Positions 1,686 to 27,912 of a DNA stretch of 64,000 nucleotides are shown in pieces. How positions within the stretch are numbered: position 1 is the first letter of the stretch; every line of letters starts with the position of its first letter. The notes under the pieces were generated by a model that searched no databases, was not told the DNA's origin, and saw nothing but the letters and a program-made list of their open reading frames with translations. The stretch covers positions 25,234,001 to 25,298,000 of the forward strand of contig OZ004613.1 in NCBI GenBank assembly GCA_963924565.1. Reading direction: 5' to 3'. Made by a program: the position numbers and the translations under genes. This stretch comes from Ascidiella aspersa. Taxonomy: Eukaryota.

Positions 1686-3109
1686 CGCTCAACCGACGAT
1701 TGCTACATCTGTCGTGCCATCTCTCGCAAGTTGGTGCGATCCACACGGAAAGAAACCTTGTTGCAGTAATACCAATGACGGACTGTGCAGTTTTCCTTCG
1801 AACGACACTTGTGAATGCGAAGGGTAGGCAATCACACGCACAATAATATATTGTTTTTTTGTGCAGGCGCCAAGGTTATTCAAAAATGCGCACATTAATA
1901 GTTTACAATTTACTGGTACTGGAAAGCGTGCAGAACTGGGAGCTTAGCCTTATATAATTTGTTAGTTATCTATTTTGTTAGTTATACATTGTGATTCAGA
2001 TGTATGATCGTTTCGAAAACTTGTGCTCGGTAGCTCAGTTGGATGACCGATGTTGGTGTATGTCCAGTATGGATGTCATAATTAATAGTTATTTATTTTA
2101 AAATCAAATGCCCAACATTACACTATATTTAACAAACATGGAAAGCCGTAGAATTTTTGAGCTCCTAATTCACGGCTCACTGTAAAGAGCAAACAATCTC
2201 AATAAAAGTTCAAGTTGTGCAAATAAATGGAGATGTCTTTATTATTATATTGACAGCTGCCTCGATATGACCAAGTACAAGCACGCCGAGATTTCTCGAT
2301 GGGAAACCGAGGACGCGCTATGCAAGTGGAACAACTACAGCAGCACACAAGCATGTGACGTCATACGGGAGTCTCCCTACGACAACATCTACTTTGTGGG
2401 GGATTCCCTGATGCGAAACATGTTTATGACGCTCACCGTACTGCTCACGGGCGACCCCGTGCGGGGAGCGTGGGGAAAATCAATGACCGAGGAACAAAAG
2501 CAAGTTTGTGTTTCCAACGAGCTTTTGTGCCAGCTGGAGTGTAGAAGAGTTGTGACAAGTTCGGATAAACTCCTTTACCAAGAAAAGCTCTGCGGGGGAA
2601 CCAAACCCAACTTTACGATCGATATGCTCGTTTACTATAACAATGATCGCAGTAGGCTCTTTATTAACCACGTCTTGAAACTTCTGGGCAAACGCGGGTC
2701 GCTAATTGTGGTTGGGGTGGGATTTCATTTTCAGCTTGATGCGGAAACGGTAATCGGAAACTACTTAAACCCAGCCGTGGAAGCAATTGAGAATTTCTAC
2801 AAAGACAGTGGGCTGCCAGCCTCTAAAAGATGGCCGCGAATATTCTTCGTTAATCCGCTAAATCCTTCTTTCATGAAGCCAACTGTTCATCATAAAAAGC
2901 AAAGCAAGGCCGCGGTCGCTTCGTTTTGCTCGAGAATGAGCGAATATTGTCGCCAGCACGAAATCCCGCTGTTCGACTTCAGACAGCTCTCACATCACGT
3001 GCACAGCTTCGACGGAACGCACTTCGGCCTCGGCGTGAACTTGATGAAGAATCAGATCTTGCTCAACTACATTGCTGGAGAGGCGAAAGGGACAGATTGG
3101 CAGTCTTGA
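1686..3109 (+). CDS. SGNH/PC-esterase-like acyl-esterase/transferase with Cys-rich module, copy A (5'-partial; exon 1 lies upstream of the window)
   Basis: Exon 2 is 1686-1823 (138 nt, ag/gt) and exon 3 is 2257-3109, with compatible phases. Contains the FVGDSLMRN and SFDGTHF motifs and is near-identical to copy B. Confidence 0.85.
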
Positions 3110-3448
3110 TTAGAGATGTGTGATACTTGGCATTTTTAGTAGATAGCCTATATGCATTATATTATAGCGTTACTTATCACCAAATCCCAATCCTTTTATT
3201 TAGAGCTTTGCCAATTTTAATCTATTTTCGAATATGAACACAAAGGTGAACTTCAGATTTTGTTATTTTAATTATTTTGTAAGTAGAACAAAAAACATTT
3301 CTCATGTGAAACTTAAACTGCTACACTTCTTTTACTATAGAAATGTCTATTTTACTGTATAAAAAAAAATAGTCATATAGCTATACTATTAGAATCCTAC
3401 CATAAAAAGGTTGGGTTTTAAATGAAAAATAACTAGGCTATCTTATAC

Positions 3449-3760
3449 CAGAGATATGGAGTCGTAGTCGGAAGTCGGGACTCGAGTAAGACCACGTAAG
3501 ACTTCCCAAGTCCCGATTCCGACGTGCGCATGCGCAGTACAAAATTTCCTAAATGACAGTGTCGCAATCTGTAAATTGTAAAGATGTTGGTAATAAATTA
3601 TATGACACCCCTATCAGTATATTGCTGTATATTCACCAACTAAGTTATGAAAATGGGTAAAATACAGGCTGTAGAGTCGGACTCGAAAAAATTGCACATT
3701 TGGTCGGAGTCTGACTCGGGAGTCGAACTCGGGTTATTTTTAACCGACTCCGCGCACTTA
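3449..3760. mobile_element. Non-autonomous DNA transposon with gagtcg/cgactc subterminal repeats
   Basis: Flanked by the 8-bp direct repeat tcttatac. Same family as 48810-49474. Confidence 0.75.
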
Positions 3761-5374: not shown

Positions 5375-5688
5375 CAGGGGTTCCCAACTTTTTTCCAATA
5401 CCGTACCACTTGGACATTTTCTGACGCCACGCGTACCACTTCTTCTATAACAGTGGTTTTCACCCTTTTTCTACCGCGCAACCTGTGGTAATTGTTCTGT
5501 GCCTTGCGGAATAATTACGTAACAATGAATAGGCTTTAGGTAAGTTTTTTTTTTTTAAATACAGACCAACAAAATATAAAGTTGTGAATCCAGGTTTTTG
5601 TAAAAAAAACGGAAGGTATACTCGCGTACCACCTGGAAAACCTTCGCGTACCAATAGTGGTACGCGTACCACAGGTTGGGAACCCCTG
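5375..5688. mobile_element. hAT MITE
   Basis: TIR caggggttcccaac/gttgggaacccctg, perfect TSD gtctaaac and internal cgtacca repeats. Confidence 0.9.
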
Positions 5689-7158: not shown

Positions 7159-10100
7159 ATGAAGTACTTTAAATTATTTTTGTCAATGTTGTTTGCCTGC
7201 CTTTACATCACATGGATTTGCTCGCATGAAAAATGGCCGCATCTTGCTGAACACGGCAGCCTCAGTATCAAGTCTGAAATTGATGAGCCGGGAATCAGAC
7301 ACGTCTACGCGTCAAGGTCGCGAGCTGCGACTTGCGACAATATTCTTCAAAACCTGACTCGTGGTCGGTGGAAAAGGGATTTGACCGCCAATGAGAGTTA
7401 CCTCGACTCTTTCATTAGCACTTGTCGGAGGGAAAGATTGATGATCGATCGGGTGTGGCGCAATGACGGGAAATGTGGTCATCTGCAGTAAGTTTATTGT
7501 TGTGTAGCGTTTCTTTCAGCGCTGTTAGGTAGAAACTTGGATTTGCATCACGAATTTTGATGTTTTTTGCGGTATATATATTTTGTTTAGGAATTTGAAT
7601 GCTTTGTAATGACTCCAGTGCACAAATCATAAACGTATAAGTTTGGTGTTGGGTGAACAACCGCAATATTCAACATATTCTCAACGTTATGTTTAATGCA
7701 AATCAAGTGCAGAACTTAAAGGCTGCAAAACCAGTGTCAGAGATAAATTATTGTGAATTTTGTTATACGCCTTGTTTTTACAGGATAGCTTAAAAAAGGC
7801 TTACAAAAATCAGTCGGACCAACCAGGATTATTTTGCAAGCAAGAAAGAAAACTTTTGTCCGTGCTAACAGAATTTATGACGTCAGCCTTAAAAGACAGT
7901 CGCTCTACCGACTGAGCAAGGCTGGCTCATTGGGGCTGGTCGGAAAACCTCCATAGCACCGTCGCACACTTCATCATGTTAGTCCCAACAAACTCATTTG
8001 ATAATGAATCAACCGCCTTTATTTGCAACTGAATTATGCATTATAAACATAATGTTATTTTATCCCTTGGACATTGCGCTTATTACTAGTACACCGGGTT
8101 CTTAAGTCTTACAGAAATTTATCTACCAATTAATCCCATTAGGCCGACAGAAGTTCTTTTGGCGGTTTAGTAACACAATAGTCTAATTCAGGGTGGTCCG
8201 GGCCACATGTGGCCTGCCACATTATTGTTCGCGGCTCGCGAAGCACTGTTGAATTTTTTGCAACGCGTACTGTTAGAGCAGGGGTGTCCAACCTTTTAGC
8301 TCTTGTCGGCCGCATTGACAGTCTTATTTTCCTCACGGCCGCAAGTTAATTTTTTTTAAGGATGACTCAAAAAGTTGTCAAATCGTGACGTCATATCATT
8401 ATTATTCTTAAAAAGACGTTTTGTTGTCTAACAAACTCGTGGTAAAATATGAAACCTAAATGCAGATTAATCGCGCGAAGCACGAATAAAAATGCTCCTG
8501 GCACGCATGGAGCCTGCTTTATGTGTCCCGTAAAGAATATGCAAGAATATTGTGGCCCGCGATGCTGTCAACCTTGGTTGTTCGTATAGGCACGATTTCA
8601 GAAGAGCTAGATCAACGGTTCTTAAACTTTTCTATAAATTTTGCCTGGTGGACACTTTGCAATGATTTTTATATTTTATTATTTTTTTTTTTCGCGTCCC
8701 TTTTTTTTTGGCCCTATGAAAATGGGTCAGTTGACCCATGTGTCTTGTCGTACACCGGTGCAGTTACGATTCTTTCTAATGTAAAATCTTTCTAACTAAT
8801 ATGAACGATTCGCTGATAGCATACTGCAGAATAATATTAGGTACTACAACATAATTTGGGATGTCACAAGAGACATCACAAAACACGCTTTATTATCGTA
8901 TAATAATGCATAACTAAACACGACAGATAAGGTTTACAACATAGACTAATGTTTAAAAACATTCGCTCAAGCTTAATGTTTGAAAACTTAAAGACTAATT
9001 CTCATTGCGGACCCTCTGAAACTGCTGCGCGCACCCCAGTCGGTCCGCGGACCCCAGTTTAGGAACCGCTGGGCTAGATCATGATGTATGAACAATGTTT
9101 ATGTAGTTATAGTTTAAATTGTCAACGCAGCCAAATAAGTTTTTATACTTCTTTGATTTAATTTGTAGCGCTCAACCGACGATTGCTCCATCTGTCGTGC
9201 CGTCTCTCGCAAGTTGGTGCGATCCACACGGAAAGAAACCTTGTTGCAGCAATATCAATAACGGAGTCTGCAGTTTTCCATCGAACGACACTTGTGAATG
9301 CGAAGGGTAGGCAATCAGAAGCAAAATAATTTATTGTTTTTTTTGTGCAGGCGCCAAGGTTATTAAAAAATGCGCAACAATACAATAATGTTTACAATCT
9401 ACTGGAAAAGCGTGCAGAACTAATAGCTTAGCCTTATGTAATTGGTTATTTGTCTATTTTGTTAGTTATATGTTGTGATTGTGATATAATATATAAATAC
9501 TATTTTTTAGCTGCATTGTTTATTCAAATTCAATGTTTGGGGCAGTTATGAAATTAAGCCTAAACGGTTCGATGATGCATTTCGGTAAAATAATTTTTTG
9601 CAGGGGTTATGTTTGTGGTTATGACTTACATGTAATGTAGTATGATTGTTTTAAAACTTGAAAACTTGTGCTCGGTAGCCCCGTTGGTTGACCGATGGTG
9701 GTGTATGTTCAGTATGGATGTCATAATTAAAGTTATTTATTCATTTTAAAATTCAATTCCGAACATTACACTATATTTAACAAACATGGAAAGCCGTAGA
9801 ATTTTTCAGCTCCTAATTCACGACTCACTGTAAAGAGCAAACAATCCCAATATAAGTTCTTTAAGTTGTGCAAATGAATAGAGATAGTTTTATTAAATTG
9901 ACAGCTGCCTCGATATGACCAAGTACAAGCACGCCGAGATATCTCGATGGGAAACCGAGGACGCGCGATGCAAGTGGAACAACTACAGCAGCACACAAGC
10001 ATGTGACGTCATACGGGAATCTCCCTACGACGACATCTACTTCGTGGGGGATTCACTGATGAGAAACATGTTCATGACGCTCACTATACTGCTCACTGGC

Positions 10101-10757
10101 GACTCCGTGCGGGGAGCGTGGGGAAAATCAATGACCGAGGAACAGAAGGAAGTCTGTGTTTCAAATGAGCTTTTGTGCCAGCTCGCGTGTAGAAGAGTTG
10201 TGACAAGTTTGGATCAACTCCTTTACCAAGAAAAGCTCTGCGGGGGAACGAAACCTAACTTTACGATCGATATGCTCGCTTACTTCAACAATGATCGCAG
10301 TAGGCTTTTTATTGACCACGTATTGAACCTTCTGGGCAAACGCGGGTCGCTAATTGTGGTTGGGGTGGGATTTCATTTTCAGCTTGATGCGGACACGGTA
10401 ATCCAAAATTATTTGAACCCAGCCGTTGAAGCAATTGAGAATTTCTACAAAGACAGTGGGCTGCCGGCCTCTGAAAGATGGCCGCGCATATTCTTCGTTA
10501 ATCCGCTAAATCCTTCCTTCATGAAGCCAACTGTTTATCATAAAAAGCAAAGCAAGGCCGCGGTCGCTTCGTTTTGCTCGAGAATGAGCGAATATTGCCG
10601 CCAGCACGAAATCCCGCTGTTCGACTTCAGACAGCTCTCGCATCACGTGCACAGCTTCGACGGAACGCACTTCGGCCTCGGCGTGAACTTGATGAAGAAC
10701 CAGATCTTGCTCAACTACATTGCTGGAGAGGCGAAAGGGACGGATTGGCAGTCTTGA
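7159..10757 (+). CDS. SGNH/PC-esterase-like type-II membrane protein with hevein-like Cys module, copy B (439 aa)
   Basis: Exons 7159-7487, 9169-9306 and 9905-10757 total 1320 nt, with canonical GT-AG and phase 2/2. The protein has an N-terminal hydrophobic anchor MKYFKLFLSMLFACLYITWIC plus GDS and DxxH motifs. Confidence 0.9.
7780..7926 (-). mobile_element. tRNA-derived SINE relic in intron 1 of copy B
   Basis: Paralogue of 700-865; the minus strand reads gctcagtcggtagagcgactgtcttttaaggc. Confidence 0.55.
8613..9071. mobile_element. hAT MITE (paralogous to 1141-1585)
   Basis: Termini caacggtt...aaccgctg, TSD agctagat/ggctagat. Confidence 0.8.
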
Positions 10758-12206
10758 TTAGAGATGTGTGATACTTGGCATTTTGCCCGACGCCGATATT
10801 TTGGGAAAAACTGCAGCAATCCGATGCGATTAAAAATGACGTCTTCAGTTTGATCAAAACCGTAGATTCAAAATTAAAAAAGGAAAATATTATTAAGCCG
10901 GAATTCGCTTTATCGTTAGGATGCTTTCATAACTTCACATTTAAAGTAATATTTTTACCTTTAAAAATAGAACTTTTCATTTTGGATCACAAACAATCTG
11001 AAAGGCACAAACTCATTTAGTATCACATCGGTAATAATATCTCCCTAGTAGCCTATGGGCCGGTTTAATGTTGCAGGAAATCCTTGTTCACTCTTTTCGC
11101 TATTCTTTTCGCTATTAAACAAATTTCACAATACAGATTTCTTTTGGAATTGTAAATGATATTATGCCATTACAGTATTTGCTTTAAAAAAACAAATTAT
11201 CTACAAATACTTGTTGCTATTTAGTAAGAAACCTCATTGTCTTATAGCAATGCGTTTTTTAATTGCAGATAATTTACGTGTTGCCTTGAGTATAATTATT
11301 TATTATTATAATCGAACCATCGTTTTGAGCGATTTTTATCAGTCAAGCAGCAACAGATATCTTACTGATAAGTGACAGACGAAACAACTGACATTAAATT
11401 TCTATCCAATTTTTGCATTTTTTAGTGAAATACAGGTTCAACTTTTATTTGAAATATAAAATCAATGTAATTTTGTGGGGTACGAGCAGCAAAAAAGGTT
11501 GGTAACCCTTGCCTTAATAACTTTTGTTAACCCGCAAATTGCACTTTGTTATTTAAAAGTTGTTTTGCAGGTTGTAACCCAGCGGTTCTTAAACTTGTTT
11601 GAGCGCGACCCAAATCTGAGTTTTATGAGCATCTCACGACCCAAGCCTCAAACATCAAAAAATGTACTTTTTCTGATATGAATGAAAAAAAAGACACAGA
11701 AAACCAGATATAGTACCCTACATATTTCTATGCAACAATGAGTGAGTACAAACAAATGATTAATTTATTTTAGTGTGATTGGTGAAACTGTCCTGTCTAA
11801 TATCAGCGTGGCTTGTTGTGGTGACTAAAAGCTTACACCAGCAGCTACTGTAGCTGGCTGCCATCAAAACCTTCATAAAACCACTTATGATGCAATAATC
11901 CAGGTTGCAGATTTGAAGCAACGTGAAAAGCTTAGAATTTTTCAGCAATAATTCAGTTATGATTGAACTGAAAATATTTAAAAAATAACATGAAAAAAGC
12001 TTTTTGACCCTGCGCGAATTTTTCCCAGAAATTTTATTAAAATCACTAATAATTACTTTAATACTTAAACAGTATACTCATAACTGACTGTCAAATGAGT
12101 AGTTACAATATATTTATCACCCAATACATTTAAAAGATATTGCACGTATCCAATAAAACGAAACTGAGTTTAAGAACCACGACCCTATTGTGTGGTGCAT
12201 GTAATT

Positions 12207-12605
12207 CAGGGGTTCTTAACCTTTTTTGTATATTTTACCCTTTTAACAAAGATGAATATCAGATTTACCCCCAACATATAAAATGGTTCTATTTTTTTTA
12301 AAAAAGAGTAGAAAATTATATTAGATATGAATGAACAATAAAGTTACTAAGAGATAAGGATGTTGCCAATTAATCAAAATAGCTATCATCGCGAAAAATA
12401 ATGTTACCGACACGATGATAAAGAATTATTAGGCTAACTTGAATTAGCAGTTAACCTGAACTAGGAAAGTAGGCCACCTATACCTATGGCTTGCACACTT
12501 TTTCTGTCCTGTCTGATGTGGATATTTTGATTGATAGCTCATTTATCCCCTAAAACGAGAAAATTCCCCCCCTGGGGTAAATTTACCCCCGGTTAAGAAA
12601 GGCTG
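12207..12605. mobile_element. hAT MITE
   Basis: Termini caggggttcttaacc...ggttaagaaaggctg with a perfect TSD atgtaatt. Confidence 0.85.
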
Positions 12606-12652
12606 ATGTAATTGAAAGGTTTTCGCCTAATTTGTGGTTCATTTTTACTTAC

Positions 12653-13004
12653 TTGCGATAACCACATTTTCCGTCGTCGCGCCAAAACCTTTTCAAGATT
12701 TTCTCTTCATTCCAAAATTTGCTGTAAAGTGCGTCGTAATAGCGTACGTTGCCTGACGGATCCCTTCGCCAGCTATACCATGAGTTATATTTGAAAGCAG
12801 GTTTTCACACCGCGGAGTTAAATTCTGCGATGTCGCGGGTTCTTCTTCAAATACTCGTTTGTTTTGCGACGTAAGAGGCTTAACCTTGCTGTAATATCGA
12901 CTCAAAGTAGTCGATATTGAGCGTTTTGCGTAGAAGTGTATCCATGCAAAACACACACAAGCGGCTATGACCAACGCGTGAAAAGTTAACTTTAAAGGTT
13001 TCAT
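12653..13004 (-). pseudogene. Orphan frameshifted exon 1 of the SGNH family (copy E)
   Basis: Reads MKPLKLTFHALVIAACVCFAWIHF...CENLLSNITHG, then a 2-nt insertion at ~12775, then SWRRDPSGNVRYYDALY...WRDDGKCGYR and a gtaagt donor at 12652. I found no exon 2/3 downstream on this strand. Confidence 0.8.
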
Positions 13005-13592
13005 TACGTGTCGGTCAGAGTTATTTGTCGGAGGCACTGTATTCTGTATACACCTTAAAATGCAGTATTGGGGTTATCGCAACTTAACATAGAGTAAAGA
13101 AAATTTTAAAAATATTGTCACGGTAGAAATAAGCGCGAAATAATTTGAAATTGTGTTTTAGAATTTAAGCATAGTGTTGTGAAATGTGAACACGACATTT
13201 TTGAATTTCTAAATTAAAAGGGTTATATGTCTAGGTCCACGGAGGATATCATTTTAAGTCGCTTACGACGTGCCTTATGTTAAACAAATAGTGCAGCAAA
13301 AATATTAAATTTATCCTAAAACCACAACAACAAAAGCAGCATCGGCAAGCAAACTGAATAACCTTTATAATTTAACTAAGGAAATTTGGGCAATATTTTC
13401 AAATATTTATTAAAAAATGCTTTTATTAGAATTACTGACACAAAGTCATTTGCTTAAGTTACTGAAGACCGAGTTTAGTTATTAGCCCTCAAGACTTAAG
13501 TGAATAAGTTTGTTAACAGCAGCATTTTAAATACAATTAGGCAAACCACAGGACACATAACGGGACCTTTCAAAGCAACAATCGCTATAAGG

Positions 13593-13920
13593 CAGGGGTT
13601 CTTAACTGGGGTCCATGGACCCCTTGGGGGTCCGTGAACTAGTTTTAGGGGGTCCATGAAACCCAATTGAAATATTAGTGTATATTTAAGAAGTAATATA
13701 TTTATCAAAAAAATAGAATAAAAACGGCTTTGCACTGATGCACACGGCTCCATTTCACTTTCACATTCACATTTTTCGACCGAAATCAGCAGATTTATAA
13801 AGTCTTTTTGTATTGTGACGTAAATTTGTGACGTCATTTTTAAAATGTTTGCGTACTGTGATCTGCGCGAGACAAAAAAAAATTCAGGGGTCCCCGGTAA
13901 AAAAAGTTTAAGAACCCCTG
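13593..13920. mobile_element. hAT MITE
   Basis: TIR caggggttcttaa/ttaagaacccctg, perfect TSD ctataagg and internal gggtcc repeats. Confidence 0.9.
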
Positions 13921-13926
13921 CTATAA

Positions 13927-14420
13927 GGACTTCTATATAATACCACCGTATGAAGACAAACGAAATAATAAGTCAGTATATGTACGTAGGAATAAGACTT
14001 AAAACCGTCAGAACAGTTTCGATTACTCAATCTACGATCGTTTGGAACATATTGGAATAAATCCCAAACTCATCGGAATAAGACCTAAGCGGCCTAAATT
14101 AGCCCTATATTTTTTATGGACACCGGTCTGGCATCGGCCGTTTGGTTGTCGGCATTTCGGCGCGCTATAGTTGAAACGGCGCCGCAGGGGCTCCGCTGTT
14201 TTGGCACCGGGCTTTTGCACCTGTTGGGATTTGGGAGGGTAATTGGTGAGGTCAGAATTTGGGTTACGGTGAAATTATAACGTGATTTGGCGATGAACTT
14301 AGGGGTGTGGATGGGGTTCGCTAAAAGGTCCCAAATGTTCTTATAGCCGTTTAGGTTATATTTGACAGGTTTAGGTCTTATGCCGATTTCGCTGTTATTT
14401 TAACTTCGGTCTTATTGCTA
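13927..14420. repeat. Interspersed repeat with ggaataagac/gtcttattcc internal inverted repeats and a G/T-rich core
   Basis: Similar to ~54545-55061, which ends cggtcttatggctgaagtcc. Boundaries are approximate. Confidence 0.55.
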
Positions 14421-15424
14421 GGGTTTTAAACAACATCTGCAAATTTCTTTAGTTTTTAAAGTTCCTGCGTTAATCCTAATAAAACCTCGCTTTTCATTAC
14501 TAATTCATCTGAAACTATTCATGCCATCTAATGCTAAATTATTATAACGTTATGATCTATTTAGCACCATAAAATGAGTTTAAGATATTTAATAACTGTT
14601 TTCTGCTGTTTATAAATAGAAAGCGCAGTGTTTTGCTGACGCAAAAGGCAAACCTTTTTTCAGCTACACTGCTTTTAAGCAAACTTGGGTAACTGACTTT
14701 TTTTTTGGTTTTGTTTTAGCTAGTTAAACTAGAACAGGCAAACAACAACTAACATAACAAACTTAAACGCATTGCTGACATATCAATAGTATGAATGGAT
14801 TATAGTCGATTGGTTTGTGTCGCTGTACAGAAAAGCACGCTGGTTGTATTGACGCAGGCAATTAAGCGTGGGAAACACATATTGTTCAACTTGACATACA
14901 GTCGCGTTTTCTACAAAAGTGTGCAGTTTACCATAACTTTATTTTAAAGCAATTTGTAGATATAAATAGTTCTTCATAATAAATTACAAAGCGAAAAAAG
15001 TCGATTAGATCGACATCATCCTGATTAAAACGTTTTGATACGAGCTTTATCCTCTTCAGTAAATGTTGCATTTATTATCAAGCTACATATTATAGATCCG
15101 TGCATAGTGTCCCTTGTAGAAGTATATGACCATATTTTTCATTCACACCGCTGGCAAAAAGCCAAAAGAGACGTACAAATAAATAAGTAATTTAACTTAT
15201 AAAACTGTAAAACATAATACACATAAAATTGCAGATAGGCGCAAAACTGTGCATTGACAATTTGTTAAAATTTTAATTATTGGGCCTCACCAATAAATTA
15301 CTTTATCGACTAAATGAAACACACCGCATTAGTTGCGTTTCCTTCTTTTACAAATGCGACCACGGAGTTCTTTCAGTCACTCGCTGATTCGCTTGGCTTA
15401 CGTTCTTTCATGAAATACGTATCG

Positions 15425-18400
15425 TCAGCTCATCTCTGCTGATTGCTCGGCCTCCCCTGCTATGTAATTAAGGAAGATCTGGTTCTTCATCAAGTTCACG
15501 CCGAGGCCGAAGTGCGTTCCGTCGAAGCTGTGCACGTGATGTGAGAGCTGTCTGAAGTCGAACAGCGGGATTTCGTGCTGGCGGCAGTATTTGCTCATTT
15601 TCGACGAAAACGAATCGACTGCGGCCTTGCTTTGCGTTATGAGAAAATGACTTGGTTTCATGAAAGACGGATTCAGCGGATTGACGAAGAATATTCGCGG
15701 CCATCTTTCAGAGGTCGGCAGCCCACTGTCTTTGTAGAAAACCTCAATTGCTTTTACGGCTGGGTTCAAGTAGTTTCCGATTACCGTTTCCGCATCAAGC
15801 TCAAAATGCAATCCCACCCCAACCACGATTAGCGACCCGCGTTTGCCCAGAAGTTTCAAGACGTGGTCAATAAAGAGCCTACTGCGATTATCGTTGTGGT
15901 AAACGAGCATATCGATCCTAAAGTTAGGTTTGGTTCCCCCGCAGAGCTTTTCTTGGAAAAAGAGTTGATCCAATCTTGTCACAATTCTTCTACATGGGCG
16001 CCAGCAGAAGAGCTCGTTGGAAACACAGATTTGCTTCTCTTCCTCGGTCATTGATTTTCCCCACGCTCCCCGCACGGGGTCGCCAGTGAGCAGTATAGTG
16101 AGCGTCATAAACATGTTTCGCATCAGGGAATCCCCCACGAAGTAGATGTCGTCGTAGGGAGATTCCCGTATGACGTCACATGCTTGGGTGCTGCTGTAGT
16201 TGGTCCACTTGCATCGCGCGTCCTCGGTTTCCCATCGAGAAATCTCGGCGTATTTGTACTTGGTCATATCGAGGCAGCTGTCAATTTAATAAAAATATCT
16301 ATATTTATTTGCACAACTTGAAGAAACTTATAATAAGATTGTTTGCTCTTGACAGGGAGTCGTGAATTAGAGCTGAAAAATTCCACAGTTTTCCATGTTT
16401 GTTTCTTCAGGTAAATGTTAGGCATTTAATTTACATTGAACAAATATATTTACTTTAACATCCATGGGCCGGCAATAGTTTTCAATCGTAGTGCTAATTG
16501 CAGTCAACATATTCGTAGTATTTCTTTCCATCCGGCATAAACCTTACGCAATACAATAAAGAGTGTTTTGTTTCAAGCACACGGATAACTTCAAAGTGTT
16601 TGCAGACCTGCATTTTTCGTTTTATTGTCTGCTTTGCTATGTCTATAATTACTTTACAGTTTTGTTTGAAATTCTCGTTGTCTTGGTCTTTTTTTTTTGC
16701 TTTTTGCTAACGTGGATTAATATTTATTAAAAGATATTTTCTAGTAAAAAAGATGCAGCCATACAGTTAAAACACATGGGTGCTTTCAAAAGGCAACTCT
16801 CAACAAGGACATACACCACCATCGCTCAACCAACTGAGCTACCGAGCACAAGTTTTTAAATCTCTAAAAAACGTTAATTTATCGCAAAAACGCCCTGGAT
16901 TATTCAGGCTTACTTTCATCACTGCCCCAAACAATGAATTTAATGCAGCTAAAAAAATAATATTTATATATTATATTAGAATCACAATTAATGGACAACT
17001 AAAAAACATGCCAACTAAGAAATGTGATCAAACTAAACTATCAGTTCTGCACGATTTTCAGTAAATTGCCAATCACTAATTTTGCGCATTTTTTGAATAA
17101 GCGCCTGCACAAAAACACTCTAAATTTTTTTGTGTGTGATTGCCTACCCTTCGCATTCACAAGTGTCGTTCGATGGAAAACTGCAGACTCCGTCATTGGT
17201 ATTACTGCAACAAGGTTTCTTTCCGTGTGGATCGCACCAACTTGCGAGAGACAGCCAGTTGACTGGCGCAATCGTCGGTTGAATACTAAAAATCAAATCA
17301 AAGCAGTATAAAACAAACATTTAACTGCGTTGATAAAATTTAAACTAACAATACATTATACACAATGTTATATACATTGTGATCTAGGCCAGTGGTTCTC
17401 AACCGCATCAACTTCCTGCCGGTCCGCCAAATATATTACAATTTTACATCTTAGTTGCAAAATGCCAGATGTTAAAAGCTTGTCAATTAAATGTAGAACT
17501 TCGCCAGTTCCGTAATTTGCTGCGTTGTGACGCAACATAGAGTTGTGCTCTACTTTGGACTTTATTGTTCGTCACAATGGCGCAAGTGTTGTAGTAAGCT
17601 ACAACTCGAAAACTTCAATGAACCACGTAAAACACGTATGATATCAAAAAGACAGCAGCAAATTGCTTATTAAATTGACGTCACCATTCTTTGCTTTTAA
17701 GTTGCATATACTTTTGTCGTAATTACATTTTGGGTTGATTTTGATTTTTGAAGGTCCACCGGTCCGCAAAACTTGTTTTGAAATTTTACCGGTCCGTAAT
17801 CTAAAAAGGTTGAGAACCACTGATCTAGGCATTGTAATCTAGCCCAGTGCTCTTCAACCCTTTTTGGTTTGGTGAACCCTTAAAGTTGTTGTGACGAATT
17901 CATGCACCTTGTCTACTTAAAACGTAAATTGCGGTAAAAAACGATATGAAAAAGCAATATGCAATCAAATCATTATGTAAATCAAACCTAGCGAAGCTAC
18001 CGAAGTTTTGAACACTGTAGGTAAGAGTTCGACTATGACTGCAGGCTGCTTGCAAGTACTATTTATGTCATAAAACAGCATTCAAGCTTTGCACAAAAAA
18101 CAGGAATACAATTGATACCGCGACAGTTCAAAACGGGTGTGCCGCGTATTGATACCGCCACGGCAAACGGGTGTGCCGCGAGACCATGTCAGGTGTGCCG
18201 TGACGTATTAGTAGGTGTGTTACTTGTTTTTCTTGAGGCATTTTGGCCTTGTTATTCATTTAGGGTGTTTCGCTGTAGGAAGTTTCAGTAATTTTTTAAG
18301 ATTTTGTAATATTACGTTCAATGTCAAACATTTCGAAATAGTTTTGACTGTCTCAACTAACAGGAGTATAAATCTACAGCAGTTGTTTTAAAACTTTAAA

Positions 18401-20492
18401 CCAAAGTGGAAGGGGAGATTATCCGTACGCTCAAACCCCCTTCAAATGTCATTGTGAAAAGTATCATTGACTTTTCGTAATTGTATAGATTAATTTTGGC
18501 TGCTGTTCCGAAAAACAAAATATTGATCAAACGTGCGAATTTACCAATAAATGTCACCAATGTTCACTGATGCGCTATTGCAAGGGGGTGCAATTTACTT
18601 GGGTTAAAATATTTTAGGAAACGATGAGAAGATAAAGGAGGCCGCCTTCGCCGCGTTTATTCAAAATTCGCCTCCTTTTTTTCTATGCTGCGTTGGATAT
18701 TTGCCCTATTATTTATTGTCTACTGTCGATCTACATATATTTTGTAGGTGTGTGGTCATCGGTTTTAACTCTGGTTTGCGGAACACTGATTTAAACTACC
18801 AGTAACAGTACACCGAATGCCGCCAAAAATCTATATTCGGCCTAATATGCTTGATTGGTCGCCAATTTCTGTGAGCTTTGGGAATCTGGAGTACTACTGC
18901 AATACTATAGTCATGTCTAAGTGGAAAATGACAGTATTTTTATAATGCATGGTATATTGCTGATACAGGCGATGTTCGTCCATCTAATAGAATTGTGTTG
19001 GCGAACAGGATACATCAGGCCACAACCAGATAATTCTATTTTCTAATTTAATGAATTAGGGCAAAATGCATTAAATCTAATTCTAATCTAATTTGTGATA
19101 TGCTTGTGTGAATCTATTTATAAGAAAATTCGGATTTTACCAAAAATTCTACTTTGTCCCGCGGCATTTTTAGTCTTTCAGTTATTTAAAGAATTTCAAT
19201 TAATTCTTTCGATTGGGACGACTTGTAAGTAATATTTATAGCCTGAAAAGCATAAAAAGTCATAAAACTTAGCACACACATATTTACCATTCACGTCCAT
19301 TTATTAAATTGAATGTGAATAATTTAATGTAATTCTTGACAAATTCTAGTTGAAATTTGATTTTTTAGGAATTCGGTCGTTTTAAGTCTAATCAAATTTG
19401 AGAAAACTCAAAACGATTTAATTCTAATTCTAATCTAGTTTGGAAAACCTAAAAGCTCTAGTTTTAATTCTAGTCTAATGTCAAAAAGCTAAAATGAATC
19501 CAGTTGTCCAAGTCTGCATCAGGCAACGGTGCGATTGAAGTTTTCCGACCAGCTTCAATGAGCCGTCTTTGGTCGATCGAAAGAGCGACTGTCGTCGTAA
19601 GGCCGAGGTTGTGGATTCGAACCACAGCGCGGGCGTTTGTCTCGCGTGCACAGTAATCCTGGTTGGTTCGAGTGATTTAAGTGAGCATTTTTTGAGCTAT
19701 TCTAGGTACTAATTTAAAACAAGAACATAACAAAGATTTAAGCAAAATAGGATGTAAAATAAATTTCGCAATCATCCCTCGTCCACAGTTCACACTGCCT
19801 TGAAAGCATCAAGTTCTGCACTTTATTTGAATTTAACATATCAGGGGTGTTAAGTTTGTGGGCACTCTACCAGTACCAAACTAAAACTTTTGTGCACACT
19901 TATTTAATTCCCTCTGAGTCCAACCCTTGAGTTATTGAAAGGCAACAAAGTTCCGAAACAAAAAGTATATACCGCAACAAAATTCGTGATTCAAATCATA
20001 GTTGCTAACTTTACAGCGCTGAGCAATAACACTAGGGAAAAAAAGAAAACTTTTTTTAGCTTACACAGTTTTGCCTAACGCTAGCGAATACTATACAAGC
20101 CACAAAACGCGTCAATTTGCGCTTCATTCTATTGGGTCGTCACCTTGACTTTAGGATACCTACTGCAGATAACCACACTTCCCATCGTTGCGCCACACCT
20201 GATCGATCATCAATCTTTCCCTCCTGCATCTGCTATAGACCGCGTCGAGGTAACTCTCATTGGCAGTCGAATCCCTTTTCCACCGACCACGAGTCAGATT
20301 TTGAAGAAGACTGTCGCAAGTCGCAGCTCGCGACCTTGACGCGTAGACGTGTCTGATTCCCGGCTCGTCAATTTTGAACTTTATACTGAGGCTGCCGAGT
20401 TTAGCAAGATGTGGCAGTTTTTCATGTGAGTAAATCCATGTGATGTAAAGGCAGGCAAACAAAATTGACAAAAATAATTTAAAGTACTTCAT
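15425..20492 (-). CDS. SGNH/PC-esterase-like protein, copy C (439 aa)
   Basis: Exons 20492-20164, 17285-17148 and 16277-15425 have the same sizes as B (329/138/853). Splice sites are canonical and the motifs are intact. Confidence 0.9.
17390..17822. mobile_element. hAT MITE
   Basis: Perfect 15-bp TIR cagtggttctcaacc and perfect TSD atctaggc. Same family as 33830-34286 (opposite orientation). Confidence 0.92.
19562..19720 (+). mobile_element. tRNA-derived SINE relic in intron 1 of copy C
   Basis: gccgtctttggtcgatcgaaagagcgactgtc...gattcgaacc contains a B-box-like motif. It occupies the same intron position as the copies in A and B. Confidence 0.55.
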
Positions 20493-21341
20493 TGTTTGTT
20501 TGTTAACATCGATTCGTTTATTCCAAGATCAAGTCTTTAGGGGACATTCCGTGAAGGAAACATATAACGCAAACCATATATATTTGCACTTTGAACAAAC
20601 ACTCTATATTTTTACTGCATCTGGAAGACATGAGTTGTAAAAAACGGTACAATATAAATGGGTGTTTACATCGGAACCTTGACATAGCAAAACAGGTACT
20701 TTTATCATTAGGCTCGTTGCAATTTTCCAATGGCATCGCACAAGGTTTTCGTATCGTGTCTTAACCTAACAATAATAATTAATTAAATTAATTGTTATAG
20801 TTTAAAATGTGCTTTATAACTCATTATTACGAAACAATAACAATTATTTATGACATAACAATGACATTCGTCAACTCTGATTCACTTTACAATGAGACAA
20901 ATAAAGGCTACAGCAGTCATCATATAAATGCTATGTAAAACCATGTTGAAACACAAATTCTAAGACCGAGAAAGATGGACCAAAACAGTGCGCAATAATA
21001 ATGTCAATTACCTCAATTTACGGTTTACAGTTCTCTGATAAATTGGCAAAGCGAAACATCAGTGTGTCATATATAGAAGAGCACTGCCAATTGTCATGAT
21101 AGCATGTTGACTATTAACCTTCAGTATCATCTACATCCGCCATTCCTAAATAAACTCTGAGAGTATTTTGCTTAAAAACTAAAACTGTTTCACAAACAAA
21201 AGTCTACCATTTCGAAATTGACTCAACTCCCATAGGCTTTCTTACCATCTTACAAAGTTACGAAACAAAGCGTAAAATAGCTTACAGTATGCCGAGTAAC
21301 TTCTACTGCCTGCTGCGGTTAATCTTAGCAAGATGCTAGAA

Positions 21342-21663
21342 CAGTGGTTCTCCACCTTTTGTGGCTTGCAGCACCCCTCAAAAATAATCAATGGCTTGCA
21401 GCACCCCTCAAAAATAAATCGATTTTCGTTCGTTGAGTATTTTACTAAACTGTCACTATAAATGAAATTGGAACACCACACGCAACTTAAAACAGGCAGG
21501 AAAGTGTCATTTGATATAATGGTCTCTAATCGTACACAAATAGCTGTGTCACAAAGCTTACCTATTGAGCAAAAATCAAATTCTTAAAATTTCTTAAATA
21601 CCTATTACACCCTTGAGCATTGGACACATCAAGCCGCCGCGGCACCCCGGTTGCGAACCACTG
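21342..21663. mobile_element. hAT MITE
   Basis: Termini cagtggttctccacc...ggttgcgaaccactg, TSD tgctagaa/tgctaaaa, and an internal 30-bp tandem duplication. Confidence 0.85.
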
Positions 21664-22239
21664 TGCTAAAAGAGGAAGCTCTAAAACATGTTGCGGGTGG
21701 TAACGTTATCTGTCTAATGTGCAGTCGCATTATATGCCATTCGCCACCACATTTTATGTGAAGCAGAATTTTCAGCGATTGCCACCAATAATACTAAATA
21801 CTTACATATCGATCACGGATAAACGTCCAACGAAAAATGCGGGTGGCTGTTTTACAGATCGTCCCGAGATTCACTGAACTTAAGTGAAGCCACTCGTCAC
21901 ACTAGATTTCGATGGTGGTAGCCATCAATATAACTTTACTTTGATTGTGCATTTCTGTTGCTTAGGATTAGTTATTTCAGAATGGCAACCATCAGCTAAA
22001 TTTCGTGCTCTGTTTTTTGTATATATAATGTATGTGGACTTGCATTTTGCTTGCTTTCTCTTGTGTTTAATAAAAAAATAGCTGAAATACCTCTCGCTGA
22101 GGCGCGTTGCTAGTCAATGCAAAGGCGCCTCAAAAAAAGCTTGGAAGCATTGCATTTGTCTGTACTGTGCTGGGTAAAGTATTTGAATTGTTTATGTCTT
22201 CAAAACAAGTCTTTCTGGGTTTGGTGCATTACGCTAGAA

Positions 22240-22531
22240 CAGTGGTTCTCAACCTTTTATGGTTTGCGGCACCCCTAAGAAATAATAAATAGATTGCGGC
22301 ACCCCTACAATAGGTACTTCACTAGAATGTCACAATAAACGAAACTGGAAAAATAAACATCAACTCTGTACAACGTATAACGTTTTAATTGGATTTATTC
22401 CACTCTACTAATCTTGCACAAAAAGTTGTAGTAGTTGAGCAAAAATCAGATTCTTAATGATTCTCCAATATCTCTCGGCACCCTTGAGCATTACAAATGG
22501 TACCCAAGGGTGCCGCGGTTGAGAACCACTG
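22240..22531. mobile_element. hAT MITE (same family as 21342-21663)
   Basis: TIR cagtggttctcaacc, TSD cgctagaa/cgctaaag, gcggcaccc repeats. Confidence 0.85.
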
Positions 22532-24221
22532 CGCTAAAGCATAAAAGAATAGCTCCGTGATTTGTCCAGACTCCTTATAGATATAGATCAAATCGAACCT
22601 AACAACGGCTACAATAGCCCTAGGCGCCGAGAGTTTGATCTATATCTCATCTATATGCCGGTTTTAATTGAACAAACGGATCGACTGCTAATCGAATCGA
22701 CGATTTCACATTGTTTAACAGTTTACGCGATCTTTAAGATTCAGGAGCGACAACAGTTAAAATGTATTAAATCTTTCTTTATATTCTGTTCGTCATATTA
22801 AGGCACAATCTGGACCTGGCGAACACCATGAGATCAATATTATGTGATTTATGCATACCCTTGCTTAAGAAAAGGATCGAGCGTCTTGATTGGTTTCAAG
22901 CTTGACAAACCTGTCCTGACCCTTGGGTCCCATGTCCAAATAACAGCTTCTCGAAACGTCTCAGCAATTCTCGTTTAGTTTAGACGTTAAGCCATAGTCG
23001 ATGGTGTACTACGATATTTCTTAACCCATGGGTCGCGACCCAAATCTATGGGTCGCCATTTGTTTGTTTAGGTCGCCGATCGCAGTCATTATAATTTTAT
23101 TTTTTATATAACTTGAATTAATACGCTTTGGTCGCAGCGACTTTTATAGGTAAATTTTACATACTTAATTTTTTTACATACTCTACAGAACATACGCTAT
23201 GGTGAAACGTAGCAATGTTAGCAGATGAATTTTTCCAATCACATTCTAATGACAATAAATTGCGATTTAAACTAAATTGATTGTGAAATAATTAAAAGTA
23301 ATTCTACTCAAATTCTAGCTGATTGTATAATATTCAAAAATTTAAATGTGGAAAACTAAATTGTTCTTTTATTTATCTAATTTGAAACAACTATAATGCC
23401 CTAATTTTAATCTAGTCTAGTTTCAAAAGTTAAAATGAATCTGAAGTCTGCGAACATCGGACTGGAATTAAGGATGCGTTACCGCCGGCAAATGAATTGC
23501 GTGGTTTTGTGCTATCAGCAAAGACATTCTTTTTGCTCGTTAAGGGTGCAGATAAAACTGTCATATTTGTTGTTGTGGTCATTTAACATTGACAAATGTC
23601 TAAAAAAAAGGTATCATGAGACTCATTTGCATTATTAAGGTGTAACTTAAGTGTATTTTTTTCTCATGAACTCATCTGATGCAGAAAACACAGTTCAAAA
23701 ATAAAACTTCACCGCACTATGTATTTATTTGATTTTAATTGCCACTTCTATTGATTTTGGTATCACATTGTATCCCATAAGTTAAATGAGAGTTAAAAAA
23801 TGGTCATGTTAGTTTTATCGTGTAGATTTTCGTCAAATTATTTAGGCCGGTTGTGTACAGAAATTTAATAGTGTTAACACCCAATTCCAATTACGTTAAG
23901 TTATTCCGAGGTATAGTAGCCTAATTTAGCTGTTACAAAACTATTTTCAGTTTTTAAAATAAAACACGATTTATAATAACTTTTATATCTTATAAGTTAT
24001 TATATCTATATGTTGCATAGATTACCATGGAGTACAAAAGTCAAATTAGTTCGGCTGTTTCTGCTCAGTTGATTTCAAGTCGAGCACTAAACAATAAACA
24101 ATAAAAAATAAGTCCTTGTCCTATTTTTTGCATATACTTGATAGAACAGCGATAACTTTTTGTGCCCAAAACCACATACAAATAATATCGCAGGGAAAAT
24201 AAGCGCTACAAAAAACAAAAG

Positions 24222-27200
24222 TCACTCATCGAGGTAATTAAGCAAGATCTGGTTCTTCATCAAGTTCACGCCGAGGCCGAAGTGCGTTCCGTCGAAGCTG
24301 TGCACGTGATGCGAGAGCTGTCTGAAGTCGAACAGCGGGATTTCGTGCTGGCGACAATATTCGCCCATTTTAGACGAAAATGAAGCGACCGCGGCCTTGC
24401 TTTGCGTGGTGAGATAGACCTTCGCTTTCAGGATTCCAGGGTCCAGTGGAAGAACAAAGAAGATACGCGGCCACCTTTCAGAGGCAGACACGTTCTTGCC
24501 TCTGTAGAAGTCCTCAATTGCCTTTACAGCTGGGTGCACAAAGTCGCCGATCGTGGCGTTCGCGTTGAGATGGAAGTGCAAGCCAATCCCGAGCACAATC
24601 AGTGTGCCATTTTTACCCAGGTGCTCATTGACGTGTTTTAAAAACTTTGCACCGAAAGCTTTGTTGTAGTAGACGAGCATACTGACCGCAAAGCCGGGCC
24701 TCGTACCACCGCAAAGTTTCTCGGGATAGATAAGTTCATCAAGAGTTGTTAAAATGGTCCTGCACCAATCCCAGAAGAAGAACTCCTCCGCAACGCAGAT
24801 TTGCTTCTGTTCCTCCGTCATCCTTTTGCCCCACGCACCCCGCACGGCGTCGCCAGAGAGCAACATGGAAAGCGACATGAACATGTTTCGCATCAGGGAA
24901 TCCCCCACAAAGTAGATATCGTCGTAGGGAGACTCCCGTATGACGTCACAGGCTTGTGTGCTGCTGTAGTTGTTCCACTTGCATCGCGCGTCCTCGGTTT
25001 CCCATCGAGAAATCTCGGCGTACTTGTACTTAGTCATATCGACGCAGCTGGAAAACAAATAATAAAGAAAAACAAACAGTAAAGTCATCCCTGTCCCTTT
25101 GTATAATTTGATGAAACTTGTAATCGGGTTTACCCCAAACAGAGTGACATACTTGTACTTAGTCAAATCAACGCAACTGCGATTGTAACGTTAAAGACGT
25201 TATCGCCTGCTGCTTATATATTAAACAATTTATAATATCTTTGTTTTCACCTGCTGACAGAAATAAAACATTGTTTTAATTTAGCGATATTAAAAGTGTT
25301 ATTGATATAATCAAATTTTGAATGAATAAGGCAGCAGTTCGATAGTTGGATTGACAGATTCGGTGAGTCGGCGATGACTTTTCGGTGTACTAATGATACG
25401 TAAGCCGTAATCGTTGGTCAAAAAGGACTATATCACTATGGTTAACACACATGGATGTGTGCATGTTTCATTCAGTTGGTTAATGAACGAAATAATGCTC
25501 AACCATAAACAGGCTGGCTAAATCTAACGAAAACTTCTAAAAATTTACAACCTTAAAGTAACTTTAGTTAACCATTCACCTAGTTAAGTATAGAAAGGCC
25601 TTGTCCAAGCTAAAACAGCGAAAGTGTAGAAATGAAAGATAATTCACCAAATAAACAAATCAAATATAAATTAATTATAGGCTTAACATGCAACATAATA
25701 TGAATGACGAAATGCCCGACGTTGCCCAGTTTAAATAGAATATTTACTAGTTTAATTCTATCCCGGCGTTGCCCAGATTAAATAGAGTGGTAACCAATTT
25801 AATTTTACTAGTTCCGTTGTTGTGGCGACGTTAATTATTTACAAAAGCGCGATAACTTTCTAAATTTTCTTAGATTTTGCTTTGGCCCACCAAAATGTAG
25901 TAACCCATAATGTAATTAATTACGTTTGTATATTAAGTTGTACTATTGGTGTCATGGAGTTCGACCACCGTATCAATTTAGTACGTGTATTTCGTTGTCG
26001 CACTCTATGAGTTTACTGCCATGCAGCATGCACGCCCTGTACACGCCCAGTACACGCCCTGTACACGCCCAGTACACGCGTTTCTCGCGTTGCTATTTCG
26101 CTAGCGTCCCTAAGGCGCAGTAATTGTTGGTTTACGTTGAAATGGTGATTGCATTGTACGCCCTATATAACCGTGCGTGTTATTCGTTCTTTCCCTCTGC
26201 TTTACTTCTACGTCTATGAACACTATGTATATCTGACAACTTTGGTCTAAAAAAAAGAAAGACAAAAAAATATATATTTCAGCTTCTTCCCTGTGTTATT
26301 AGGTGTAAAATAATGCAGCCTGCAACTCTAATATATTTCCAGTGATGTTGAATCTATTAACTGTTTTATAATTAGTTTGTTTGCAATTCCAGAAAAAAAT
26401 GAAAAAATAAAATAAACCTTAAACGAATACAACAATATGTGCGTGTAAATTTGATAGACTCTGGTTAAAACATGAATGTCGCAATTAACATGAAACCGAA
26501 ACGTAATGTTACGGATTTACGAATGAATGCCGTCTATTAACATTTGTAAACAAAGTACGTAGTCGATAAATTGTTTTTTACTAGTTTCAGTTAAATAGAT
26601 TGACCTAAGCACTTTTTAAACCATACCAAACAACCTATCAATACCGATACGATACAGATAACGATTTTTGTTTGTTGTCTCCTACCCTTGACACTCGCAA
26701 GTGCTGTTAGATGGAAGGCTGCATACTCCGTCGTCCGAATTACTACAGCAAGGTTTTTCTCCGTATGGGTCGCACCAGCTTGGAGCCTCCGGCATCCGAC
26801 TATCTTCTATCTTGGCTTGAGGACTGTCAGGTAAAACACCGCTTATGGAAAATGCAACGTACAGTTATACATCTTTGGAGCATAATGGTTGGAGGTTGTA
26901 GTAAGACGTAATAAGAATACCAAAGCCCATACACAAGTTGGTAATATTTCGAACGTTTCGAATAACTTTCTAAAGGAGAAATACCTACTTCAGTATGGGC
27001 TTTGATATTCTTAATGGTTTTAAAGCAGGTTAGAAGCTTTAGTGAAAGCATAAATTGCAAGTTATTAAGGAACTGTTTTGAACCGTTCATACGTTATGTA
27101 AAACTAGTGCTTTCCAAACTGGGTCTGTGTATAATAGTTTTAAAGGGTCTGTACAAGACATGCGAGACTGATAAATTGTATTATCCGGCGGTTACACTTC

Positions 27201-27912
27201 TTTACGTTTTATTACACAAATCATTTGGCAACCTGTGTACCAAGCAATTCAAAACAACTACCGATTTGGACGAGTAATCAATGCAGAGTTTTTTTCTTAT
27301 TTAAAGTAATTTATGGGGTTCTCCAAAATTTCAAGTGCCAAAAGAGAAAAACCAGATCGGTGTTAGTTCTGCGCGGGGCATTGGAGCAGCTTGTCATCGC
27401 ACACTTTTATTTACCTTGATATTTATGTAAGAATTAAATTTGGAAGCAAAAACTGGCGGATTCGTAATCGTTTTAGTTTAGTTGGGATTCCATGTCACTC
27501 TTTTATTCGCAAATGCCATGGCATCGCAGCTTAACATCCGTCCAATACAAAATTATTTCGTTCAACCTTAACTTACTTTTCCAAACCACATTTTCCGTCG
27601 CCGCGCCACAGATGCAGCAGCATTTTCTTGCTCTTCCAATAACCGCCGTAAAGTGCGTCGTAATAGCTAACGTTGCCCGCTGGATTTCTTTGCCAATTTC
27701 CATGAGTTAGGTTGGACAGCAGATTTTTGCATGACCTTTTCTTTGTTCGTCGGTGCTGTCTTAACGTTTTTCGTTTTTGTTTTGAGAGGCTTAAATTTGA
27801 CGTATTTACGACTGGATTCCGTGAGCATGGATTCTTTCTCGTAGAAAAAAATCAAACCGAGGCATACTAAAACGACTGCCGAAATTAAGCAGGCACTTTT
27901 TAAATTCCTCAT
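24222..27912 (-). CDS. Divergent SGNH/PC-esterase-like paralogue, copy D; apparent +1 frameshift in exon 1 (pseudogene, null allele or assembly error)
   Basis: Exon 1 is 27912-27577 (336 nt where 3n+2 is required). Exon 2 is 26823-26686 (138 nt, SWCDPYGEKPCCSN...CECQG) and exon 3 is 25047-24222 (GDSLMRN, FDGTH). Exons 2 and 3 are open. Confidence 0.75.
25700..26420. repeat. Interspersed element with duplicated cccggcgttgccc motif and a tacacgccc(t/a)g tandem repeat; possibly Helitron-like
   Basis: The motif occurs at ~25715 and ~25762 and the 11-bp tandem units at ~26029-26080. The class is inferred and the boundaries are approximate. Confidence 0.35.

Follow-up and report, generated by a model that had tools for sequence, protein, structure and literature searches.

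The window, the 64-kb stretch of DNA analysed here, carries a tandem cluster of five related loci (A–E), of which only two, B and C, are complete open genes (Table 1). When their exons are joined by coordinates, the introns are GT..AG with phase 2/2 and each gene reads through as an open protein of 439 residues; the joins rest on these coordinates and on the fit of splice sites and phase, RNA-read coverage being too low to display the junctions. The layout is not a product of chance: proteins in the databases from Ciona, Clavelina, Styela, corals and a snail have the same joined arrangement, and in all six paralogue pairs the dN/dS of exon 3 is 0.15–0.37. Paralogues differ mostly at residues 236–263, 276–297 and 365–385. 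For copy A, whose exon 3 is 94% identical to that of copy B, a tblastn search upstream found no exon 1 in the window, and DNA resembling intron 1 of copy B begins at position 437, 5' of exon 2. Copy D is likely a null allele or a young pseudogene: the frame slip in its exon 1 lies downstream of the anchor and ahead of the first lobe Cys, and a contig from run X1, possibly of the same source as the window, covers 26986–27949 with 0 differences and 0 gaps. The near-identical ends of its exon 3 likely reflect gene conversion. Locus E is a pseudogene remnant, a lone and frameshifted exon 1 from a divergent paralogue; no exon 2 or 3 belonging to it was found in the window.

Table 1 Genes and exons of the tandem cluster, in positions of the window
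Feature	Position	Strand	Content
Copy A exon 2	1686..1823	+	Six module Cys out of eight; bounded by AG and GT, frame continuous with exon 3
Copy A exon 3	2257..3109	+	Open frame with the final module Cys, W-x6-C lobe motif, SGNH domain and stop
Copy B, full gene	7159-7487, 9169-9306, 9905-10757	+	Joined frame open, 439 aa
Copy B exon 1	7159..7487	+	Hydrophobic anchor, stem, first lobe motif, helix, module start WRNDGKCG
Copy B exon 2	9169..9306	+	Hevein-like module core: C127, C135, C136, C144, C152, C154
Copy B exon 3	9905..10757	+	C157, W171-x6-C178, GDS 204-206, R209, GxGxH313, D408-x2-H411; ends 439 aa
Locus E, lone exon 1	12653..13004	-	352 nt; anchor and first lobe Cys share a frame, WRDDGKCG lies in a different one
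Copy C, full gene	20492-20164, 17285-17148, 16277-15425	-	Joined frame open, 439 aa
Copy C exon 3	15425..16277	-	SGNH domain; open frame, 85% identity to copy B
Copy C exon 2	17148..17285	-	Module core
Copy C exon 1	20164..20492	-	Completes 439-aa gene
Copy D exon 3	24222..25047	-	Open; middle divergent, ends near-identical to A/B/C
Copy D exon 2	26686..26823	-	Module core
Copy D exon 1	27577..27912	-	336 nt where phase 2 is required; one base out of frame

The catalytic part of these proteins has the layout of a PC-esterase. Its serine lies in G204-D205-S206 and is kept in 112/112 homologues. In PC-esterases this N-terminal GDS motif follows the first strand, and the exon 3 model has a strand (E43–48) and then a helix. 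The DxxH motif retains D408 in 105/107 and H411 in 101/106 homologues, with the last helix of the model beginning three residues past the histidine. PC-esterases are defined as having no conserved Gly after strand 2 and W or H in place of Asn (Anantharaman and Aravind 2010, PMC2824669); here, no column between residues 271 and 308 is conserved at 60% or more, and instead of GxND the proteins carry G309-x-G311-x-H313, with H in 99/112 and W in 5/112. The lobe motifs of copy B are C59-x3-L-x5-G-x-W71 in exon 1 and W171-x6-C178 in exon 3. Structure searches with the predicted models (pLDDT 95.8 and 93.8) returned SGNH proteins in the top rows of Foldseek and VIA-align, XOAT1 being first in VIA-align; the searches with a whole model hardly probe residues before 142. 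Against Pfam PF13839, two of the four exon-3 frames in the window scored 12.9–16.3 bits and the other two gave no match, below a gathering score of 27 bits that is a score rule only and not a family definition; the commonest weak Pfam match was NXPE4_C (27/103 members at E<=0.01). At the N terminus, B and C reach 2.0 in a hydrophobic 17-residue window at residues 4–6, the hydrophobic anchor of copy B spans about residues 4–22, and 77 of 83 homologues reach 1.8, a segment predicted to be a secretory signal or anchor.

Between the lobe motifs sits a module of eight cysteines (C106, C127, C135, C136, C144, C152, C154 and C157), which in a family profile align with C27, C41, C49, C50, C56, C63, C65 and C68 of the hevein-like domain (CBD) of amphioxus BbtPGRP3 (PDB 4Z8I; PMC4610682), with profile E-values of 3.9e-8 and 1.2e-4. 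Both modules start alike (WRxDGRCG), agree in the order of the eight Cys, CC pair included, and end in C-x-C-x2-C-x-D; however, the window module is embedded in an enzyme lobe rather than forming a terminal domain, its first loop is longer, and past CC it has two additional residues. All motifs quoted in an earlier note on this DNA are present, with a CG-to-WC spacer of 18 residues where it gave 16. Since the first cysteine lies in exon 1, the next six in exon 2 and the last in exon 3, the module is split over three exons as that note had said, and its hevein-like ancestry is borne out by the profile match.

Sugar stacking in PGRP3 involves S51, W53, W55 and H62, and the W53A/W55A mutant loses chitin binding (PMC4610682). 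In B and C, other residues stand at the positions of W53, W55 and H62, in agreement with the loss of stacking aromatics noticed earlier, and across 86 modules aromatics occupy these positions in 2, 14 and 11 cases, respectively. Pfam Chitin_bind_1 found no match in window exon 1 or exon 2 alone and matched 2/117 members at E<=0.5 (best 0.0016, below cut-off). On sequence grounds, we class the module as hevein-derived and not as a functional CBM18, and in B and C it is likely a structural part rather than a chitin lectin; that it outlasted the aromatics fits such a role. The earlier proposal of a glycan-recognition or structural insert is favoured in its second half, whereas recognition by these copies is unlikely. 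We consider it improbable that the module still binds sugar by way of a reshaped surface and guides the enzyme towards its acceptor, the role that the CBD plays in PGRP3; this reading fits either catalytic direction. In its favour, B and C retain S137, the counterpart of S51, tunicate members commonly have W126 and long-loop aromatics, W55 and an aromatic in the H62 position persist in members from corals and anemones, and on Lys-type peptidoglycan PGRP3 is five-fold more active with its CBD. Against it, the positions of the two tryptophans on which chitin binding depends in PGRP3 are non-aromatic in B and C, aromatics are rare across the 86 modules, and retention without them suits a structural part.

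EGF-like domains have a six-cysteine pattern without an adjacent CC pair. The EGF label given to the module in 2010 was rejected, as the module has eight cysteines with a CC pair; a module-only profile found no EGF chain among PDB sequences at E<=10, and Pfam EGF families gave weak partial matches only (hEGF at E 0.088 on P0002, EGF_Mua-3 in 2/117). That label belongs to the AFUA_2G11920 cluster (# 20; SIG/TM+EGF2+PC-Esterase), the same subfamily as the window genes, for which the supplement of Anantharaman and Aravind (PMC2824669) lists 6 Ciona, 8 Lottia, 5 Nematostella, 1 Hydra and 2 Aspergillus proteins. Among the listed proteins, LOC100176800 of Ciona shows 44% identity (E 1.5e-79), and LOC100185235, also listed, and LOC494393 were recovered as homologues; no Aspergillus member was recovered among the named matches. 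The 2010 paper calls the module EGF2 and predicts an esterase, whereas we find a hevein-like module inside a PMR5N-like lobe; "chitin" and "hevein" occur 0 times each in its supplement. Module-less relatives were found here in the non-animals Sphaeroforma and Syssomonas, to which the 2010 list adds Aspergillus. Because such module-less relatives exist, the module was inserted between the lobe motifs, as the earlier note held, and the models and their structural neighbours back its proposal of an SGNH/PC-esterase fold that includes a PMR5N-like lobe. Its "uncharacterised animal family" needs revision: the subfamily was catalogued in 2010 and has module-less members outside animals, yet it is biochemically uncharacterised as far as literature searches reach.

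Arabidopsis XOAT1 (ESK1/TBL29; PDB 6CCI), a xylan O-acetyltransferase, is 15–16% identical to the window proteins, which add a helix and the 8-Cys module to the small lobe. The plant TBL motifs RNQxxS, RxDxH and DCxHWCLPG are absent, the window proteins having RNMFMT and FDGTHFG, and the sole motif feature in common is the Arg at S+3 (R209), which XOAT1 requires for transfer and which 102/112 homologues keep. Human NXPE1 and the CASD1 luminal domain, both sialic acid O-acetyltransferases, have the same PC-esterase catalytic layout without Gly/Asn, and NXPE1 likewise has an N-terminal anchor. Unlike the window proteins, NXPE/FAM55 members have a neurexophilin/Ig-like domain before the esterase, where our models show the helix and Cys module with short strands only, and CASD1/Cas1p is fused to a multi-TM acyltransferase domain, whereas the window proteins have one hydrophobic segment and stop 28 residues past DxxH.

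With moderate confidence, we read the window genes as AFUA_2G11920 PC-esterases that are predicted to be secretory-anchored and most likely act as glycan O-acetyltransferases, with a hevein-derived lobe module that is here likely structural and not a chitin lectin. By analogy with XOAT1, NXPE1 and CASD1, they would be type II membrane proteins held by the N-terminal hydrophobic segment, their catalytic part lying in the lumen of the Golgi or on the cell surface. H411, with D408 orienting it, would activate S206 to accept acetyl from a donor such as acetyl-CoA; R209 may stand in for the missing Gly/Asn oxyanion hole, with H313 in the block III position, and in a ping-pong cycle the acetyl-enzyme would then acetylate a sugar hydroxyl on the glycan occupying the cleft. 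The three variable stretches would suit different acceptors among the paralogues. A secreted glycan of mucus or matrix is the most likely acceptor; the Golgi location and the tunic, mucus or matrix substrate put forward in the earlier note are inferences.

There is a small chance that the family consists instead of secreted or surface O-acetylesterases that strip acetyl from own or microbial glycans, for example in innate defence, with the module as a former or present targeting domain. The Arg at S+3 speaks against this, as do the PC-esterase relatives tested since 2010, which are transferases where found in the literature; a signal peptide is conceivable for B and C, given their short N terminus, but 65 of the 77 hydrophobic segments begin beyond residue 6 and are more anchor-like. 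Hydrolysis would agree with the esterase activity and the defence role for lineage-specific expansions predicted in 2010 (PMC2824669), with the predominance of esterases among structural neighbours ranked under XOAT1, with repeated gastropod and tunicate expansions and tandem birth and death in the window, and with the fusion of the same module to an immune amidase in amphioxus. It is quite unlikely that the enzyme transfers some other acyl group or serves a non-glycan acceptor (lipid, protein or small mucus metabolite): the SGNH scaffold is versatile, according to a review, no result here constrains the acceptor, and the cleft-side residues are not conserved with XOAT1, but characterised close relatives, where found in the literature, put acetyl on carbohydrates, and the fused module derives from a sugar-binding domain.

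For the origin of the preferred glycan O-acetyltransferases we offer a tentative account, which we think possible rather than probable: an early animal may have inserted a hevein-type chitin-binding domain in the small lobe of an ancient eukaryotic O-acetyltransferase, giving an acetylase guided by a lectin to GlcNAc-rich glycans of mucus or matrix, with Trp-keeping cnidarian members still binding sugar and the gastropod and tunicate expansions remodelling the module for new acceptors. If true, mucus-covered invertebrates would have an unrecognised glycan-acetylation pathway, and "plant-like" hevein domains would be ancient in animals rather than a plant-to-amphioxus transfer. Plant-like chitin-binding domains have been claimed to occur in no chordate except amphioxus, through horizontal transfer (PMC4610682), a claim on which our re-identification of the module bears, besides correcting the old EGF label. 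As the family was already catalogued, the gain lies in annotation and a testable hypothesis and not in a new kind of system. O-acetylation alters the resistance of mucus and matrix glycans to microbes and enzymes, as NXPE1 does in the human colon, and the subfamily, repeatedly expanded in gastropods and tunicates and expanded also in cnidarians, provides concrete candidates for glycan O-acetylation in invertebrates.

The window loci are real genes, the tandem copies A to D each combining a hevein-like 8-Cys module with an SGNH/PC-esterase domain, and exon 3 evolves at a dN/dS of 0.15-0.37 in all six paralogue pairs. Every motif quoted in the earlier note was found in the window (GC 37%, zero N), and the 439-aa spliced product described there is open in copies B and C once exons are joined by coordinates, across GT..AG introns of phases 2 and 2; the two proteins are 85% identical. 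The module is indeed split, its eight Cys distributing 1, 6 and 1 over exons 1, 2 and 3, and the CG-to-WC spacer, previously given as 16 residues, measures 18. Upstream of copy A, DNA resembling intron 1 of B begins at 437, after a repeat that recurs at 49767-49954, so exon 1 of A lies upstream of the window or was lost. At exon 1 of D, a contig from run X1, possibly the window's own source, is letter-identical and gap-free. Partner exons for the orphan exon 1 of locus E were looked for across the window and none was found.

Coordinates of the gene copies and neighbouring features (window positions)
Feature	Position	Strand	State
Copy A	exon 2 1686-1823, exon 3 2257-3109	+	exon 1 absent from window
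Copy B	7159-7487, 9169-9306, 9905-10757	+	open, 439 aa
Copy C	20492-20164, 17285-17148, 16277-15425	-	open, 439 aa
Copy D	exon 1 27912-27577, exon 3 24222-25047	-	exon 1 one base out of frame; exons 2, 3 open
Locus E	13004-12653	-	frameshifted exon 1
Oxidase-like copies	~32500-36600, 40080-43900, 45890-50960, 55650-59510	-	four tandem copies
Ser-rich exon	61510-61740	+	coding-like, Met-initiated, ~70 aa
Dispersed repeats	~13600-13920, 17400-17900, 22230-22540, 25380-25430, 26870-27010		high-copy

We mapped RNA run X3, about 6% of it read, onto 7950-27949. Depth was 0.47 in the B exon 3 bin (first mate on -), 0.35 and 0.34 in the C exon bins and 0.4 in the D exon 3 bin (first mate on + in both genes), and 0 in exon bins 15954-16620, 23958-24624 and 27293-27949. 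If the library is stranded, the few reads run in the sense direction in 4/4 covered exon bins. At this low depth no splice joint appeared among the best 15 of 335 rows for the interval, and splicing thus rests on splice signals, phase and the same joined sequence in database proteins of other species.

The best matches were from Clavelina (49-50% identity), Ciona (44%) and Styela (42%), which makes an ascidian the probable source. A 21-sequence profile recovered 721 representatives at E<=1e-10, of which 179 reached E<=1e-30; the listing covered 150 representatives. Species-assigned members come from tunicates, cnidarians (Nematostella, Stylophora, Acropora, Hydractinia, Sanderia) and gastropods (Haliotis, Lottia, Aplysia, Biomphalaria, Bulinus, Candidula, Bradybaena, Plakobranchus). 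Our counting set comprised 112 proteins, namely B, C and 110 of the database homologues P0001-P0166 with 290-730 aa and a GDS-like motif; 56 further sequences (fragments, arrays, variants) did not enter the counts. The strict 8-Cys pattern was matched by 86/112, the remaining 26 being N-terminal fragments, variants with different spacing or without one Cys pair, and module-less proteins. Relatives without the module are found, among others, in Sphaeroforma arctica and Syssomonas multiformis. In four proteins from Aplysia and relatives (P0036, P0051, P0052, P0096) the SGNH domain is lengthened by an insertion of ~130-170 residues that separates its GxGxH motif from its WP motif.

Within the PMR5N-like small lobe, 88 aligned proteins have both Trp, and the distance from G-x-W to W-x-P-x2-C is 88-114 residues in 86 of them, whereas it is 30, 37 and 43, with two Cys, in the module-less P0139 (Sphaeroforma), P0148 and P0150. 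This bears out the placement of the module between the two lobe motifs and implies that module and preceding helix were inserted into, or replaced, a short lobe loop. From the distribution, rather than a rooted tree, we infer that the module was gained in an early animal. In Clavelina LOC143464584, isoform X1 (P0218) contains two tandem copies of the module core, which seem to stem from a duplicated exon 2, and isoforms X2 and X3 have one copy each; the tandem core may be a gene-model artefact or reflect alternative exons.

As for module identity, family profiles matched the N-terminal domain of amphioxus BbtPGRP3 (E 4.3e-5 and 3.9e-8) with all eight Cys in register, supporting the hevein-like assignment at the sequence level. 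A module-only profile built from 13 sequences also matched PGRP3 (E 1.2e-4), with no other match at E<=10 among 177,635 PDB sequences. According to PMC4610682, the solved structure of the BbtPGRP3 domain shows a hevein-like fold that contains four disulphides, and the domain binds chitin via S51, W53, W55 and H62, binding being abolished in W53A/W55A. Of these four positions B and C retain only the Ser, in agreement with the reported absence of sugar-stacking aromatics. Across the 86 modules the Ser is conserved in 9, an aromatic stands at the W53 place in 2, at the W55 place in 14 and at both in 1, and an aromatic or His occupies the H62 place in 11; it is the coral and anemone members that retain Trp. 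The module is likely structural in the window copies, and it is doubtful that it still binds sugar there. PMC4610682 places such plant-like domains in no other chordate and proposes transfer from plants; this is at odds with the module homologues that tunicates, cnidarians and gastropods possess.

Judged by sequence, the module is mobile, being present both in LDLa-7TM receptors and in tandem arrays. ENA proteins P0230 and P0231 are LDLa-repeat 7TM receptors (Pfam PF00057, PF00001) that begin with three copies; we take them to resemble GRL101-type GPCRs. Arrays of 10-13 modules (P0095, P0116, P0134, also ENA) gave zero Chitin_bind_1 or EGF matches in Pfam, so Pfam largely fails to detect this family of modules.

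The SGNH-type fold proposed earlier was judged correct. The window proteins are probably lumen-facing, anchored O-acetyltransferases in which S206, H411 and D408 would be the catalytic residues, R209 would support the oxyanion, and the acceptor would be a secreted glycan. Of 83 usable homologues, 77 have a hydrophobic N-terminal segment, and its start lies beyond residue 6 in 65 of these, in favour of an anchor; the segments of B and C begin at residues 4-6 and could be cleaved off. That these enzymes are instead O-acetylesterases seems unlikely. Cnidarians and gastropods have little sialic acid, and a non-sialic acceptor therefore seems likelier. A different acyl group or a different acceptor from those of the favoured transferase is less probable still than an esterase.

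The subfamily itself has been catalogued since 2010, so the earlier description as an uncharacterised animal family fails for cataloguing and, within the literature searched, holds for function. In cluster '# 20; AFUA_2G11920' of the PMC2824669 supplement, two module-less Aspergillus proteins stand with Ciona, Hydra, Lottia and Nematostella proteins labelled 'SIG/TM+EGF2+PC-Esterase', and entries LOC100176800 and LOC100185235 were recovered among homologues of the window proteins. A term search of the supplement text (Figure 2 is an image) returned neither 'Chitin' nor 'hevein'. No functional study of the subfamily gene ids or of a hevein/SGNH link was found in open-licence main texts, to which transcriptome supplements and InterPro may add. 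What is added is the re-identification of the module, its placement in the lobe and a transferase hypothesis that is sharper and can be tested.

Compared with A, B and C, copy D has a mosaic exon 3: DNA identity is 87-98% at the GDS and DxxH ends, the middle is 58-68% identical, and synonymous differences concentrate in this middle tract, from ~residues 199-212 to 366-387. An all-tract scan with 1000 permutations gave p=0.001 for AD, BD and CD, and p=0.17-0.31 for AB, AC and BC; gene conversion between inverted paralogues is the likely origin of this pattern. The D-amino-acid/D-aspartate oxidase-like gene forms a second local expansion in the window, with a Pfam DAO match in the last exon of one copy (E 5.4e-11) and a C-terminal SRL, presumably a peroxisomal-type signal. 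The dispersed repeats, at which contig depth is very high with many loose ends, are probably short mobile elements within introns and spacers. The Ser-rich exon, which had no meaningful match in a Pfam search, may begin another gene.
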